From a bacterium (GTDB lineage Bacteria; SAR324; NAC60-12), in the NCBI GenBank assembly GCA_965205865.1, contig CBDBHR010000029.1, positions 1-64,000 on the forward strand: 64,000 bases of DNA, given 5' to 3'. The translations under genes and the position numbers were made by a program. Of the stretch, positions 57,780-64,000 are shown in pieces (positions within the stretch are counted from its first letter, which is position 1; each line of letters opens with the position of its first letter). The notes under the pieces are model-generated. The model was not told where the DNA came from. It worked only from the letters and a program-made list of their open reading frames with translations, and did no database searches.

Positions 57780-57854
57780 CGCTAACGTTTGGATAACCTT
57801 ATTCGAGGGAAGCGAAAAGCGCCCCCTCGAATAAGATTTATCCACTGGTTCGCA
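57780..57854 (-). other. attC-like integron recombination site (site 3)
   Basis: Minus strand: TGCGAAC-5nt-GATAAATC...palindrome...GGTTATC-5nt-GTTAGCG. Confidence 0.75.
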
Positions 57855-58393: not shown

Positions 58394-58624
58394 ATGAAAT
58401 TAGAATATTATCCTGAAGCTGACGCTCTTTATATTGCATTAAAGAACGAATGCAAAAGCGTAGACTCTAAAGAAGTCTCAAAAGGAATTGTGCTGGACTA
58501 TGACAAAGATGGAAATGTAATAGGAATTGATATTCATAGCCAAGCGAGTCAAAAGGTTGATCTTGATAGTATCAACTTTGATAAATTTTTTGAAGCTAAA
58601 CAAGAAAATGCAGAAGTTGCATAA
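58394..58624 (+). CDS. DUF2283-family putative antitoxin
   Basis: MKLEYYPEADALYI...EVSKGIVLDYDKDGNVIGIDI. Confidence 0.88.
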   Translation: MKLEYYPEADALYIALKNECKSVDSKEVSKGIVLDYDKDGNVIGIDIHSQASQKVDLDSINFDKFFEAKQENAEVA

Positions 58625-58657
58625 TCTGTTTTGGAAATCATTCAGAACCAAAGTAGC

Positions 58658-59637
58658 GACGCGGTAGGAATGCCAGTTACCCGGCACCCCCCGCACAGAT
58701 CCCCGCATGAAGTTTTCCCTCACGGGGCTCCTCGGTTGTACTCGCTTCCGCTCAGCGTCTTTCTAAAACAACAGTATGCAGACGTTTCTTTAAGAACGTC
58801 TGATGAGTTTCGCTTTGTACGTCTTCTCTTTCAACCGCCTCTCTAAATCAGAGAGATTGTCTAAAAGATTTTGAGAATACTCCCTCGCCGTTACTTTGTC
58901 TACTCCGCTGGCTGCCTGCTTATTGAGGTGCTTCCAGCCTTCATAGAGCAACTCTCGATTGAGTAATCCGTAGAGATTTCTAAAGCGATGTTGCTTATTA
59001 GAAGCCGCTGTGATTGCTATACCCCTCAGTGAGGTTGGCTTATGTTTATCCGATCCAGCATTGTCCGGCATAAGTTGCCTTTGATAGGTTAAGTACTTCC
59101 GTCAGGTCCTTCCCCCTGTAGTAGGCTCTCCCTACCTCAGAGTACTACGCCTGATTCGCCACCCTGAAACCAAATGGCTTTCCCCATTAAGGTAATTCTC
59201 ATTCGACCTGTAAAAACAGGCTTCTTTTCAGGGCTTCCCAAGTTCTTGTCCGCATCTTTACTTACATGCCATAGTCTAAGGTGGACCCCGGTGGCCCTTC
59301 ACATCCTCGCCATTGACGGATGCTCTTGTGTTGGCTTCGGCATTCGTTAACACCCTCGCCGACCACGACTACTTGTTTCGAGGCTGTATCAACTTTCAGG
59401 AGGCGGCTCTCCCTACGGCCTGCAAGTTTCTCTGTGTACGCTTCGTGTATCTTGTTCGGATAACCGGTGCCTCTCATGGTGGATTGTCGATCGAGCCGAC
59501 TACCAATGTCCTTTGAGTATCCGGGTGATACCCACAAGATTTCCCGGTAGAGCCTCCGCCATACACGCAACACTCGATACGGGTGACAGGCTAGGTCTTA
59601 CCCGACGGGGACTTGCACCCCGCAAGATGCGCCAAGC
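58658..59637 (-). mobile_element. Group II intron derivative with internally deleted RT
   Basis: Domain V GAGGAGCCCCGTGAGGGAAAACTTCATGCGGGGATCTG (58696-58733) and domain VI ending CCTACCGCGTC. RT N-terminus HRFRNLY...ASGVDKVT...YKAKLIRR at 58790-59071. Structured 5' region without a clean GTGCG. Confidence 0.9.
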
Positions 59638-59758
59638 TGAGCGTGCAGAACCCCAAATCTAAACTCGGCAAAATTGATAAACTTTCAAATTTCTAAGAAA
59701 CTCAGAAAAAACAATCATTTGCGCGGATTTTTGCTACGTCTCTAGCGGTTTGTTAGGC
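59635..59758 (-). other. attC-like site (site 2), right end interrupted by the intron
   Basis: GCCTAAC-AAACC-GCT(A)GAG(A)CGT(A)GCA... pairs with ...TGC-ACG-CTC-AGC, giving three unpaired bases. The intron begins where the spacer and GTT should be. Confidence 0.72.
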
Positions 59759-59795
59759 TACCTCTTTTCTGACGCCACAAAATTTTGTATACTAA

Positions 59796-60053
59796 TTATG
59801 CGGCAACATCCCATTGCGCAGCTTTCGACACACGAACATATTCATCTTCATGTAACCAATGAACAACATCCGAATAAGTTGGCGAACTATAAGCTACTTC
59901 ATAGTTTTCTTTGGGATCATAAACTTTAAATTGTTTATCCTCATTGCCAACGATTAGAACATAAGGAGGATAAGCTGTTTCATCAACCCAATATTCACAG
60001 GCTCCGATTAACTTATTATCTTCATGTGTTTGGTTTGGTACGTGGGATGACAT
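59796..60053 (-). CDS. Small hypothetical protein, possible immunity/antitoxin partner
   Basis: 85 aa, acidic, ...YDPKENY...WLHEDEY. Overlaps the upstream gene. Confidence 0.7.
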   Translation of the reverse strand: MSSHVPNQTHEDNKLIGACEYWVDETAYPPYVLIVGNEDKQFKVYDPKENYEVAYSSPTYSDVVHWLHEDEYVRVSKAAQWDVAA

Positions 60054-60384
60054 GGTATTCCTTTCTTTTATTAATTTTCATTTCTGCGTAATGGAGGGGA
60101 AGCACATTACCATCCAGATCAAAACGATAACCGATTTGCTCTTTAAACATAAGTCCAAATCGTTGGTGTCCTCGAATCCATCCTGAAAAACACCCTTGCT
60201 GAGAAATTAATTCTGTAACATATTTTAGTTTTGATTCATCATTAAACACATGAATTTCACCTTAATTTTTCAATTTTTTTTGACTCTCCAATATGTTTGG
60301 AAGGTGTTTTCTTGTATGTTTTTCCGATTTAAAAATGGAATCATGAATTCCTGTTCCTGTTTTTCCAACAATCGTATATTTCAT
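60022..60384 (-). pseudogene. Hypothetical toxin-like gene with in-frame TAA
   Basis: ATG 60384 to TGA 60022 in one frame with a single TAA at 60262-60264. Contains KHLP and a C-terminal YHVIP. Confidence 0.68.
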
Positions 60385-60436: not shown

Positions 60437-60512
60437 GCCCAACGTCCGGGATAACCATATTCGAGGGGGCGCTTTTCGCTTCCCTCGAATACGGTTTATC
60501 CCCTTGTTCGCA
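60437..60512 (-). other. attC-like site (site 1)
   Basis: Minus strand: TGCGAAC-AAGGG-GAT(A)AACC...GGTTATC-CCGGAC-GTTGGGC, the canonical 7-5-8...7-6-7 geometry. Confidence 0.8.
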
Positions 60513-60546: not shown

Positions 60547-61441
60547 CCTAAATTGAGCGATTCTGAAAAAGGATCAGATTTTCAAGATGATTTTTTTGCC
60601 TGAGAAAGGCAATCATTCTGAAATCAGATTTATATCATCAAATCCATGGATGTTTGAGTGAGAATGAGCATCAAAATGCTGTTTTCAGATGTGGAAAGTC
60701 TTCATTTCTCATGTTTTGGACGCACTTATCTCCTTAAACTTTAATGTTTTTGTTTTTTAATTGAGGCGAAACCCGTTGATCAGATTGGCGTCAATGCGTG
60801 CTGGCAGGTGGCAAATAGTTGGTCCAATTGCAAGCGCTCAAAGGTCGTTTTGGGTATTTTCAAGATCAGTTTTCCGGCATGACGAAGCAGTTTGCCTGCC
60901 GTATCAAGAAACTGGCGCCGGAAGGAATCAGCATACATCGTTACCGCAATCACTGGCTTGCTGACATCTTCTTTGAAGGCTTCGAAGAGGTTATTGCCAA
61001 GCAGCATCAGGTAGTAGCATGCGGTATTGGAAATGAAGTCCTTGAAGGGTAGTTGTTGATGACCAAAGTTTTTCAGCGCCCGGTTGGCCAGTTCATCCTT
61101 TCCCCGTCCGTGGTACGAGCCAAGGATGCTATGAGCATTGATGCGCTTTTTATTTTTACGCATCGAAGCAAACATCCTTTCGATGATCGGCATCAGCCGA
61201 ATGTTTTGCAGATACTGGGCAAACAAGGCCAATCCGGCACGACTTGTCAAGTGTTCATCGGTTGGCTGAATGGCATCAATTATCTGTTTCTTTTTATCCT
61301 GAACTGTTATATTTTTTTCCATAAAGCTCTCTACTTGTTGGGTTGTGTTAGATTTTGTCGTGATATTGTTTTTACTCACTGAAATATAACATATTTTCCC
61401 CAAGGTTGGGAGCTTTTTTATTACGAATCGCTCAACTTAGG
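60547..61441 (-). mobile_element. IS1380-family element, internally deleted
   Basis: 17-bp TIR CCTAA(A/G)TTGAGCGATTC. LTSRAGL and YHGRGKDEL.NR.LK motifs fused with the middle missing. Confidence 0.82.
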
Positions 61442-61495: not shown

Positions 61496-64000
61496 TCAAT
61501 GGACATCAACGTCGGAGAGGTTGAACTCGGGCAGGGTATTGATGATGCGCATGGTTTCGATGCTGACATGGATAATCCGCTTGATGGCGGTTACCAGATC
61601 TTGCGGGTGTTTGAACCGGGCGTTGGGATCGTTGACGATGCCGCTTTGCTTGTCCTTTATGATGCGGTAACGGTCGATGAACCACTGCAGCGGTGTTTTC
61701 CCGTTGACCTGATAGCGATGCGCGGCAGCGGGAATGCCCTGCAAGCTCACGTGCTCGTTGATGCGAAGGGTGGTTTTTTCGTTGTCGAGGAAACGCATTT
61801 TCTGGTGACCGATGCGAAAATGCTCCGCTCTTGCCTCTCCACCGTGCGCGCACTTGATTGTCAACGGGTATTCCTCACAGGTTTCGTAACCGAGGTGGAG
61901 GGTGGCCAGATCATGCCCGGCTTGGGCAAACGAATGAAAATCCGTTGTGAATGGAATGCGTGGTAACTCTTTGGTCAAATCGTTAGCAAATTGATTCCCA
62001 TAACCAGGAGAGTGCAGGAACCCGTAAACATAGTCGAAAATCTGGTCCTTGTCGATCGAGTCATCTTGATAATGCATGCGAAATTCTGCGCAATGCCGTG
62101 TCCGTGATGTTATCGATACGATCCAGTATTTGTCCTAATCCCGGGTTCGCTCCCTGTCCTTCCATCACTTTCGAATACTCATACCGAGGAAAGCACTGTC
62201 CAAAACCGACAAAGTGGAGATCCGGTATCGAATCGACCATGAGCACGGAAAACGAGGTAGTTGATCCAATTCCCGGTACGCAGATTGCGCGGTTTTCAGT
62301 CGAAACGTGCGGGAAAATGCGATCAAGTTGGTACTTGTTGTTCACTAGTGTGTCGCTCTTTTATTAATGTGTAAATAATTCCTTGGTTTGCTATACTACG
62401 AGCTGTCTTTTTTTTTTCATAAATGGAGACAGCATGAGAAAAGCACCAAGTATAAAACTGACCCGGGAAGAACAGGATGAATTGAGCAAAACCGCACGCC
62501 GTCAGACCGGAGCGATGAGAGACACTCGTCGTGCGCACATCATCCTGTTGGCTGCTGATGGCCTTAAGAATCAAGAGATTGCCAAAACGCTTGGAACCAG
62601 CGGTAATGCCGTTGGAAAGTGGCGACGGCGATTTGTTGAAAAAGGAATAACAGGTCTCAATGATGATCCGCGGCCTGGCAGGACACGCATTTTGGAGCGG
62701 ATAAAATCGAGGAGATTGTGAAGAAAACCATTGAAGAGAAGCCTGAGGACCGTACCCATTGGAGCACGCGATCGATGGCCAAGGCAGTTGGCGTAGGCAA
62801 GACAACCGTCGGTAAAGTATGGAAAGCCCATCGCCTCAAGCCTCATCTGGAAAAAACATTTAAGTTGTCGCATGATAAGCATCACTGCGAAACTGAAAGA
62901 TGTCATCGGAAGGTACATGAATCCTCCTGAGAAAGCGCTGGTCTTGAGCGTCGATGAGAAAATCACAAATCCAGGCACTCGATCGCACCCAGCCAGGTCT
63001 TCCACTGAAAGAGGGCGCAATGGCACCAGAACTCATGATTATATCCGTCATGGCACCTGCTGTCTGTTTACTGCTTTGAATACGCAGACAGGGAAAGTGC
63101 TCGCTCGCTGTGAAAAACGGCACCGACACCAAGAGTATCTGCGCTTCCTGCGTCTTATTGACAAGTCTTACCTCGAAGCAACTGCAGGTATCACTTGATC
63201 CTGGACAATTACGCCACCCACAAACATCTTAAGGTGAAAGAATGGCTCAAAAAACACCCGCGATTTCACCCGCATTTCATTCCTACTTCCTCCTCATGGC
63301 TGAAATGGTGGAACGCTTTTTTGGCAAGATCACTGCAGAACGGATTCGACGAGGCGCCTTCAAAAGCGTCCTCGAGTTGACCAAGCCATCATAGTTACAT
63401 CGAGACACACAATCGAAACCCAAAACCCTATGTCTGGACTAAAACTGCCGAAGAAATTATCGACGTACTCAAACCTGTCTACCAAATAACCAATAATACA
63501 ATGTATTAAACAGGCAATACACTAGCACATATTCAACATAGCAATGCTGCTTGACAAATGGATCGGTATGGAGATTCTCTTATCTTTTTCAGCTCGAAGA
63601 AAATTTTCTTTTCGCTTTTCAAATTATTCCAATTTGATCCCATCGAAGATGTGAGGAAAACAATTGTGTTACTTCATAGAGGGTCAAGTCACGATGATCT
63701 CTGTTAGCTAGTATCGCTCCCAGATAGTCTTTGTTGCCAATTGTGCGTTTTGCGCGCAAGCATCTTGAGAAAAATTGTACAGATACGCATCTCTGCTGGT
63801 ATTTAATCCTTGTGAATACAAATTGAAAACAGCATCGTCAGTCTTGCCTGCCTTGGCGTCCTTCGACCCCATTGGAAAGAAGCGTTGGAATGCTTCATTA
63901 CGCAGGCCCACCCAGTCGTGATGTCGATCAGGCGTAATCGTTTGCCAGTCATTAATACCAGCAATTGACCCTGTATTACTCAGTATTTCTAGTTTCTCAT
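61496..64000 (-). pseudogene. Type ISP restriction-modification enzyme, C-terminal region, disrupted
   Basis: PDRHHDW, TSRDAYLYNFS, QCFPRY, DNITD, IFDYVYG.LH, LPRIP and W.IDRY....DK.SGIVNDPN motifs. Frameshifts plus an IS630 insertion. Confidence 0.88.
62346..63524 (+). mobile_element. IS630-family element with frameshifted transposase
   Basis: CTAG at both ends with TAGTGT..GC inverted ends. HWSTRSMA, SVDEK, THDYIRHGT, LDNYATH and PTSSSWL motifs. Confidence 0.92.

Follow-up and report, generated by a model that had tools for sequence, protein, structure and literature searches.

A decayed group II intron in a SAR324 genome as a pointer to a lineage that probably targets integron attC sites

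The intron remnant, its ribozyme class and its nearest copies

Among the gene-capture platforms of bacteria integrons hold the first place, with attC sites as their currency. Here we analyse a stretch of 64,000 nucleotides (hereafter the window), positions 1-64000 of contig CBDBHR010000029.1 (C29) of a SAR324 genome (GCA_965205865.1, 92% complete, G000 below), in which the remnant of a group II intron lies on the minus strand among attC-like hairpins. The remnant occupies 58658..59646 and measures 989 nt, its ends being approximate, as they were taken from alignment with further copies and relatives. A preliminary description of the locus had placed a group II intron within 58640-59758 on the cassette (minus) strand, and two covariance models of Rfam bear this out. 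RF02005, which covers domains I-IV, matches from 59615 to 59272 with 109.7 bits (cut-off 49, E value 3.7e-30, model positions 1-225 of 225), and RF00029, which covers domains V and VI, matches from 58732 to 58659 with 41.7 bits (cut-off 40). Both parts of the RNA core are recognised in this way, and domain IV carries an open reading frame (ORF) for a reverse transcriptase (RT)/maturase, of which 93 codons remain in the window and which in a full-length copy described below holds both the RVT_1 and the GIIM domain. The window element is an ordinary fossil; its value is that of a pointer to the lineage from which it stems.

The domain I-IV core (59272..59615) contains, in the terminal loop of domain I, the exon-binding site 1 (EBS1) UAACGA at 59344..59349, which was located by covariation among 41 aligned relatives and expects a 5' exon ending in UCGUUA. 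The remnant of the RT gene (58790..59071) comprises the first 93 codons, with 99% identity to residues 1-93 of the protein P0001, followed by a stop codon that was made by the junction of a deletion of about 1011 nt. In the RF00029 alignment, domain V spans 58698..58730, with an AGC triad at 58729-58727 and a 5-nt GAAAA loop at 58717-58713, and domain VI spans 58658..58696, with a bulged A at 58665 and the 3' end GCGUC. The AGC triad and the full length of domain V had been noticed before and were found again here. The last base of the intron is 58658, so the intron ends in GTC, as had also been reported, and the 3' exon opens with GCTAC.

The two ends differ in their state of preservation. 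The preliminary description had called both degenerate, and this holds for the 5' terminus (59632..59646) only, where GCACG followed by CTCAGCTTGG stands in place of the GCGCG and CCAAGC-GAA-GCTTGG of intact copies and 5 nt are missing. The 3' end is normal and is found unchanged in the full-length copy and in two other partial copies (G001a, G001b and C30 below). The lack of GTGCG at the 5' end, read correctly before, might suggest another type of ribozyme; this possibility was rejected, as relatives start with GUGCG, GAGCG, GCGCG or UCGCG at the equivalent aligned position. The intron is bordered on both sides by an imperfect direct repeat of the form TTTGG(GG)TTCTG, seen directly in the minus-strand sequence as TTTGGGGTTCTG at 59657-59646 and TTTGGTTCTG at 58652-58643. 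Group II retrohoming is not known to make a target duplication that would account for this repeat.

Further copies reveal what the window copy has lost. G000 itself contains two, both partial (C30:986464-986957 and a 100-nt 5' fragment on C3); no intact RT of the lineage was found in this genome, where the other group II RTs are only 41-43% identical. The complete genome of a member of the same genus (G001) carries a full-length copy, G001a, of 2005 nt with an ORF of 443 amino acids. The window copy is 99% identical to it over query positions 23-870 and 870-1005, and differs by the absence of about 1011 nt of the RT gene and of 5 nt at the extreme 5' end, which accounts for its length (2005 - 1011 - 5 = 989 nt). 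The G001a protein matches the Pfam families RVT_1 (111 bits) and GIIM (29.2 bits), and no endonuclease (En) domain was found in it. Subtraction of the 1332-nt ORF leaves a ribozyme of 673 nt. A second copy in the same genome, G001b, is internally deleted.

Domain V of the window copy and of the family at large is 33-34 nt long and carries an AGC triad and a 5-nt loop, the loop in nearly all of 78 aligned relatives; the short domain V with a CGC triad that distinguishes class C was not found. With this triad, length and loop the RNA of the lineage is not IIC. A 5-nt domain V loop, an intron-encoded protein (IEP) without En domain and a ribozyme of 450-700 nt have been given as marks of groups IIE and IIF in the available part of Nagy et al. 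2013 (PMC3753933). The loop, the 673-nt ribozyme and a protein made up of RVT_1 and GIIM, with no D/En domain, agree with these marks and suggest a IIE/IIF-like ribozyme with an endonuclease-less RT. Comparison of the RT with proteins of known structure is non-committal on class (LtrA 148 bits, GsI-IIC 138, T.el4h-type 135.5, 7uim 130).

Two peculiarities of the triad were observed. Opposite the G of the triad most members have an A (..GGGAUC), which in the window is base 58700 facing 58728. The usual partner of this G is a U, in a G.U wobble, and that pair is kept only in distant relatives of the Sphaerochaeta/Clostridia type. In 13 of the 78 domain V sequences (range L039-L048, L053, L086, L091, L106) AAC replaces AGC, and those of them with a mapped 5' junction mostly start with UCGCG, not GUGCG (exceptions L043 and L045). 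Since their ORFs are intact, their attC insertions independent and their EBS1 loops covariant with the exon, these members look active despite two non-canonical features of the core.

Junctions and targets of the wider lineage

Relatives were taken from the genomes G008 and G010 and then from 80 loci on genome contigs of many bacterial phyla (L numbers); full-length members were present in further genomes besides G001, with intact copies in the arrays of, for example, Marinobacterium and Desulfoprunum strains. With iterated nhmmer profiles, 5' junctions could be placed in 49 of the 80 loci, 51 in all, of which 50 have at least 5 nt of exon. Intact introns begin with G[U/A/C]GCG or UCGCG, directly followed by a short hairpin of the CCAAGC-GAA-GCTTGG kind, and end in CCUACC plus NNGAY, which in the genus of the window is GCGUC. 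The 5' exon ends in GTTN at 34 of the 50 junctions, in CGTTN at 30 and in GTTA at 27, and the first base of the 3' exon (n = 29) is G in 16 cases, T in 8, A in 5 and C in none.

The exon ends are matched by the intron. Over the 41 aligned relatives the EBS1 loop covaries with the intron-binding site 1 (IBS1) of the exon, with the exon/loop pairs GCGTTA/UAACGC, ACGTTA/UAACGU and CCGTTA/UAACGG, and the loop compensates where the exon departs from the common end (GCTA/UAGC, GGTA/UACC, ATTA/UAAU, GTTC/GAAC, GTTG/CAAC, TGTG/CACA, TCGT/ACGA and ATGTTA/UAACAU). Such covariation shows that the mapped junctions are valid and that the choice of target is encoded in the RNA. Copies within one genome (L061/L063, L037/L038, L077/L099) have only 6-9 nt of 5' exon in common, so a second, EBS2-type exon pairing seems to be unneeded for target recognition. 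Two loci hold more than one copy: at L054 (2563-2750) the 5' end of a second intron starts directly after the 3' end of the first, in tandem, and at L056 a pair of copies is separated by 3.6 kb, the EBS1 of each copy fitting its own exon, ..TGCTA in one and ..GGGTA in the other.

To compare the flanks with attC sites, we used an arm score of our own making, not that of IntegronFinder, which rates how well the arms pair from an upstream AAC to the exon's GTT, with the spacer left free; the controls were other GTT[AG] sites within the same loci, and the span had a floor of 30 nt. Control scores had a median of 4.0-4.5, a 95th percentile of 8.1-8.5 and a 99th percentile of 10.6-11.9. The 95th percentile was exceeded by 17 of 31 junction sites versus 9 of 178 controls (Mann-Whitney p = 2e-9), and the 99th by 9 of 31 versus 2 of 178. 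An earlier floor of 40 nt, which missed the short attC sites of L065 and L068, gave 13 of 31 junction sites versus 9 of 263 controls, and a cruder early score gave 8 of 31 versus 13 of 263. With the intron removed, many sites (for example L065, L068, L073, L080, L081, L063 and L042) look like textbook attC: an R'' box ..CTAAC and an L box with a spacer of 3-5 nt between them are followed by a single bulged base, the stem, and finally a spacer and GTTA|GGC. The clear attC in which G001b sits has R'' ..GCCAAC, long L stems, a TTTGC spacer and GTTA|GGCAT.

The strand can be read from the bulges and from the integrase. The extrahelical bases of attC are carried on the R''-L'' arm, and 14 of the 17 high-scoring sites have more unpaired stem bases on the 5' arm (p = 0.013), which makes the sense strand of the intron the top strand of attC. 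Of 10 copies checked in 5 genomes, 4 have the integron integrase IntI (cut-off of TIGR02249), or a fragment of it, upstream in divergent orientation: above the cut-off about 45 kb (L037), 30 kb (L038) and 28 kb (L076) upstream, and at L077 as a 123-bit fragment at 6.4 kb. This placement takes contig C1 as the named record, with which the coordinates fit; the contigs of G064 were not mapped to records. None of 14 control genomes reaches the cut-off. G001b is found 12.5 kb from an intI pseudogene, in the correct geometry. This pseudogene (G001:C1:484641-485036; 122 bits, model positions 135-266) has one in-frame TAG, and nothing comparable was found in G000. Upstream of the intron in L063 and L080, three or four hairpins are arrayed at a spacing of about 450-700 nt. 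The data do not agree with the bottom-strand, cassette-antisense position of the attC-targeting class C introns: the bulges, the divergent IntI and, in the window, the common orientation of intron and cassette ORFs all indicate the other strand. Taken together, these data suggest that the lineage homes into the R' core of attC, on the top strand and in the same sense as the cassettes.

The preliminary description had considered something of this kind possible for the family, namely a second, non-IIC lineage at the opposite end and strand of attC, and had proposed that full-length relatives, their insertion sites, their EBS/IBS pairing and the attC nature of their exons be examined. At the level of the family, the junctions, the covariation and the attC-like flanks, well above controls, support this core inference; the anatomy that had been given for the window itself was wrong, as set out below.

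Several counts nevertheless weigh against attC as the general target. The 5' exon ends other than in GTTN at 16 of the 50 junctions (15 of 46 among those with enough flank), 14 of the 31 GTTN sites fail to exceed the 95th percentile of the controls, an exact fit to GTTRRRY is seen in only 6 of 29 empty sites, and no IntI was found near 6 of the 10 copies checked. The hairpins could then be palindromic repeats of another kind, such as terminators or repetitive extragenic palindrome (REP)-like elements, with the introns inserting after any hairpin that is followed by CGTTA, much as ordinary IIC introns do. The missing integrases, in those 6 cases and in G000, would fit this alternative, and so would the fact that the arm score does not separate attC from other hairpins closed by AAC...GTT. 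It does not account for the recurring geometry of R box, 3-5 nt spacer, L box and single 5'-arm bulge, for R'' boxes that are mostly ..CTAAC, for arrays at cassette spacing, or for the divergent IntI found upstream of 4 copies and of G001b when the 14 control genomes give none at the cut-off. We regard it as improbable.

The insertion site of the window copy

Two attC-like hairpins of the window enclose the intron. Site 1 (57780..57854, minus strand) has R'' TGCGAAC, R' GTTAGCG and an arm score of 19.0, and site 3 (60437..60512, minus strand) has R'' TGCGAAC, R' GTTGGGC and an arm score of 17.5, both beyond the control 99th percentile. Both are closed by AAC...GTT and have a spacer and L boxes, and in both the R''-L'' arm is bulged. 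They are 75-76 nt long, stand 2658 nt apart as direct repeats and are the sole copies of their repeat in the genome. The position of the extra base in both sites, on the minus-strand 5' arm, and the R' ends GTTAGCG and GTTGGGC identify the minus strand as the top strand of the array, as the preliminary description had assumed. The pair is peculiar (57795-57838 and 60453-60496) in that stems and flanks repeat directly, yet the 14-nt loop of one hairpin is the reverse complement of the other's, as though it had been flipped. An inversion of one whole site relative to the other was considered and rejected, because the stems are in register as direct repeats and only the loop is turned.

Between sites 3 and 1 there would be two cassette-like units, separated by the intron. 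The first (59796..60384, minus strand) consists of three small ORFs in the sense of the top strand, one of which belongs to DUF6972, and matches G001 with 89% identity over 59764-60244; the second, on the site 1 side of the intron, contains a DUF2283 gene (58394..58624, plus strand, 58.4 bits) that runs against the sense of the array. The window intron has the same orientation as the array top strand and as the ORFs running from 60384 to 59796. A putative degenerate attC, site 2 (59647..59762, minus strand), lies immediately upstream of the intron: its R'' GCCTAAC at 59758-59752, which had already been pointed out, follows GTAGC, its R' GTT is at 59651-59649, and the rest of R', GCTAC, is found at 58657-58653 past the intron. 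Once the intron is removed, the R boxes GTAGC-CT-AAC and GTT-CT-GCTAC pair across the insertion point, as they do in the lineage.

The best explanation as a whole, which we consider probable, is that the window intron is a dead, ORF-less copy of a IIE/IIF-like, En-minus lineage that homes into the R' end of attC. In this explanation, intact members would pair EBS1 (usually UAACG) with the last 5-7 bases of the 5' exon, the (G)CGTTA target being the start of the attC R' core, and would reverse splice into the top strand of attC just after GTTA, beside the base of the hairpin and in cassette sense. As no second exon pairing seems to be needed, a single intron could use many different attC sites. 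Lacking En, it would probably enter single-stranded or replicating DNA, with a nascent strand serving as primer, and it would presumably be spliced from cassette transcripts. The window copy would have settled at the R' end of a weak third attC, in a three-site cluster without integrase, and would later have lost about 1 kb of the RT gene and 5 nt of its 5' end; with an exon mismatched to EBS1 as well, splicing and mobility would be gone.

A rival account concerns the window copy. The lineage may well be as described, and its copy here an ectopic insertion into spacer DNA between two cassette-like gene pairs, with site 2 not an attC and the complementarity a matter of chance. Site 2 has an arm score of only 5.5, in the control range, and a minimum free energy of -11.3 that is no better than that of shuffled sequences (z = -1.17); its interior is AT-rich, with no long stem, and neither an L''/L' stem with an extrahelical base nor a foldable hairpin was found. 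Its R' reads GTTCTGC, not GTTRRRY. Between the 5' exon of the window copy (GGGGTTCT) and EBS1, only about 3 bases can pair. G000 gave no IntI (no TIGR02249 match over the cut-off, best 43 bits), so the cluster is at most a CALIN, that is, an integrase-less attC cluster. Moreover, G001a, the sole full-length copy in the genus, occupies a non-attC site, antisense within an autotransporter-like gene and with no hairpin, where 5 of the 6 positions of its exon TCGTTT agree with EBS1; this site is ectopic, so insertion outside attC does happen. The gene is split by G001a (L022, 1020-6207) into an N-terminal piece of 192 and a C-terminal piece of 816 amino acids on the minus strand.

On the other side, GTAGC-CT-AAC (59762-59752) is complementary to GTT-CT plus GCTAC across the intron, which by a rough, post hoc estimate would arise by chance, within the span allowed, with a probability of about 0.003. 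GCCTAAC fits the R'' consensus RYYYAAC, and the hairpins on either side, sites 1 and 3, share its orientation. If site 2 is counted, the units measure about 0.7-0.8 kb, a typical cassette size; without it, there would be one unit of 1.65 kb with convergent gene pairs. On balance we incline somewhat towards a degenerate attC at site 2 and hold the ectopic insertion to be rather unlikely. An intron-free allele of the window locus was sought in G001 and none was found: the left flank of the intron returned only paralogous ATP-binding cassette (ABC) transporter genes with 65-69% identity, and the right flank only the two small genes of 59764-60244 that match at 89%.

The preliminary description had put the intron elsewhere in site 2, with CTCAGC as an L' box before it and GTTCTGA (58647-58641) as the R' after it, so that its removal would give CTCAGC-TACTTTG-GTTCTGA, an attC of nearly canonical spacing. 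The joined sequence indeed has an arm score of 8.0, and GTTCTGA stands 10 nt past the 3' end. The supposed L' box (59641-59636) is, however, the loop and 3' arm of the first hairpin of the intron, and it recurs in the C30 and G001 copies at unrelated loci. Since CTCAGC belongs to the intron, the near-canonical attC is an artefact. Its score, besides using intron bases, is at or below the control 95th percentile, and the GTT of the relatives is always directly 5' of the intron, which in the window assigns R' to 59651-59649. This version of the site is very improbable.

Comparison with known introns and further features of the window

The attC-targeting introns of class IIC (IIC-attC, e.g. S.ma.I2) use the bottom strand as target and lie antisense between gene and attC, where they block transcription from the cassette promoter Pc (Leon et al. 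2010, PMC3001079; Zimmerly and Semper 2015, PMC4424553), and in the available part of the latter review attC targeting is given for class C alone. Like them, the lineage described here is En-minus, has attC as a target, inserts beside a DNA hairpin and appears to use a short EBS1 with EBS2 unneeded. Unlike them, it is found on the top strand at the R' end in cassette sense, and has an AGC triad, a domain V of 34 nt and an EBS1 pairing of 5-7 bp.

The preliminary description had taken IIC introns to be the only ones described at attC. This view is slightly outdated, as Sonbol and Siam 2021 (PMC7923331) report one CL1 intron (UHB.I2) and two truncated class E introns with IIB RNA (H.ha.F1/H.ha.F2) beside attC. 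Their introns resemble the present lineage in being non-IIC and En-minus and in lying directly downstream of attC-like hairpins in cassette orientation, and the H. halochloris copies are truncated relics, as is the window copy. They come from CALINs of halophiles, rich in toxin-antitoxin cassettes. Three of the four elements in that study are truncated, the exon conservation of UHB.I2 is poor, and the role of the hairpin is treated as speculative. What is added here, over 80 relatives, is the conserved GTTA junction, the EBS1 covariation, the controls and the geometry of IntI.

With groups IIE and IIF the lineage has in common the 5-nt domain V loop, the En-minus IEP, the small ribozyme and a IIB-like organisation (PMC3753933; Toro and Martinez-Abarca 2013, PMC3552965). 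In IIE/IIF introns EBS2 is dispensable for splicing in vitro and the EBS1-IBS1 pairing is decisive (PMC3753933), which agrees with a lineage that seems to do without a second exon pairing. The available parts of these two papers do not mention attC or a hairpin target, and the words 'attC' and 'target' have 0 occurrences in that of PMC3552965. Unlike the introns described there, most members of the lineage show an A facing the G of the triad, and their GUGCG start runs straight into a 5' hairpin. The literature searched yielded no account of homing to a conserved GTTA|R' site accompanied by covariation of EBS1, although an earlier remark may exist.

More tentatively, the lineage could be a specialised, low-cost resident of integrons with four properties. 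Its sense placement would allow it to be spliced from cassette transcripts driven by Pc, so that downstream expression would be spared and transcription of the array would supply its RNA. Insertion after GTTA of an intron that starts with GUG would rebuild an R'-like GTTAGTG and leave the attC usable by IntI. The intron could then travel as the leader of the next cassette. Finally, a single short EBS1 tuned to the most conserved bases of attC might allow spread among all attC sites and across phyla. Such a lineage could also help to join new genes to attC sites.

If the lineage does home into attC, the consequences would reach beyond this genome. Well-described attC targeting has so far been the property of one clade, IIC-attC, which is antisense and disruptive, with only anecdotal IIB/class E cases besides; a second, unrelated ribozyme lineage on the same hairpins, at the other strand and end and in sense, would be a clear convergent specialisation of retroelements on one target. 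The annotation of arrays would change, in that a 2-kb 'cassette' may be an intron, and the lineage would offer a natural targeting module for single-stranded hairpin DNA. In the plasmids of PLSDB the lineage was not seen, the best RT match being at most 43.5% identical.

Some further elements adjoin the array. Upstream of site 3, a fragment of a DDE_Tnp_1_4 transposase is present at 60780-61403. Beyond it, a Type ISP restriction gene extends over 61496-63998 on the minus strand, with C-terminal specificity pieces at 61496-62345 and 63708-63998; it is broken by a frameshifted IS630-like element on the plus strand (62383-63380), of which helix-turn-helix (HTH) and DDE_3 pieces are recognisable.

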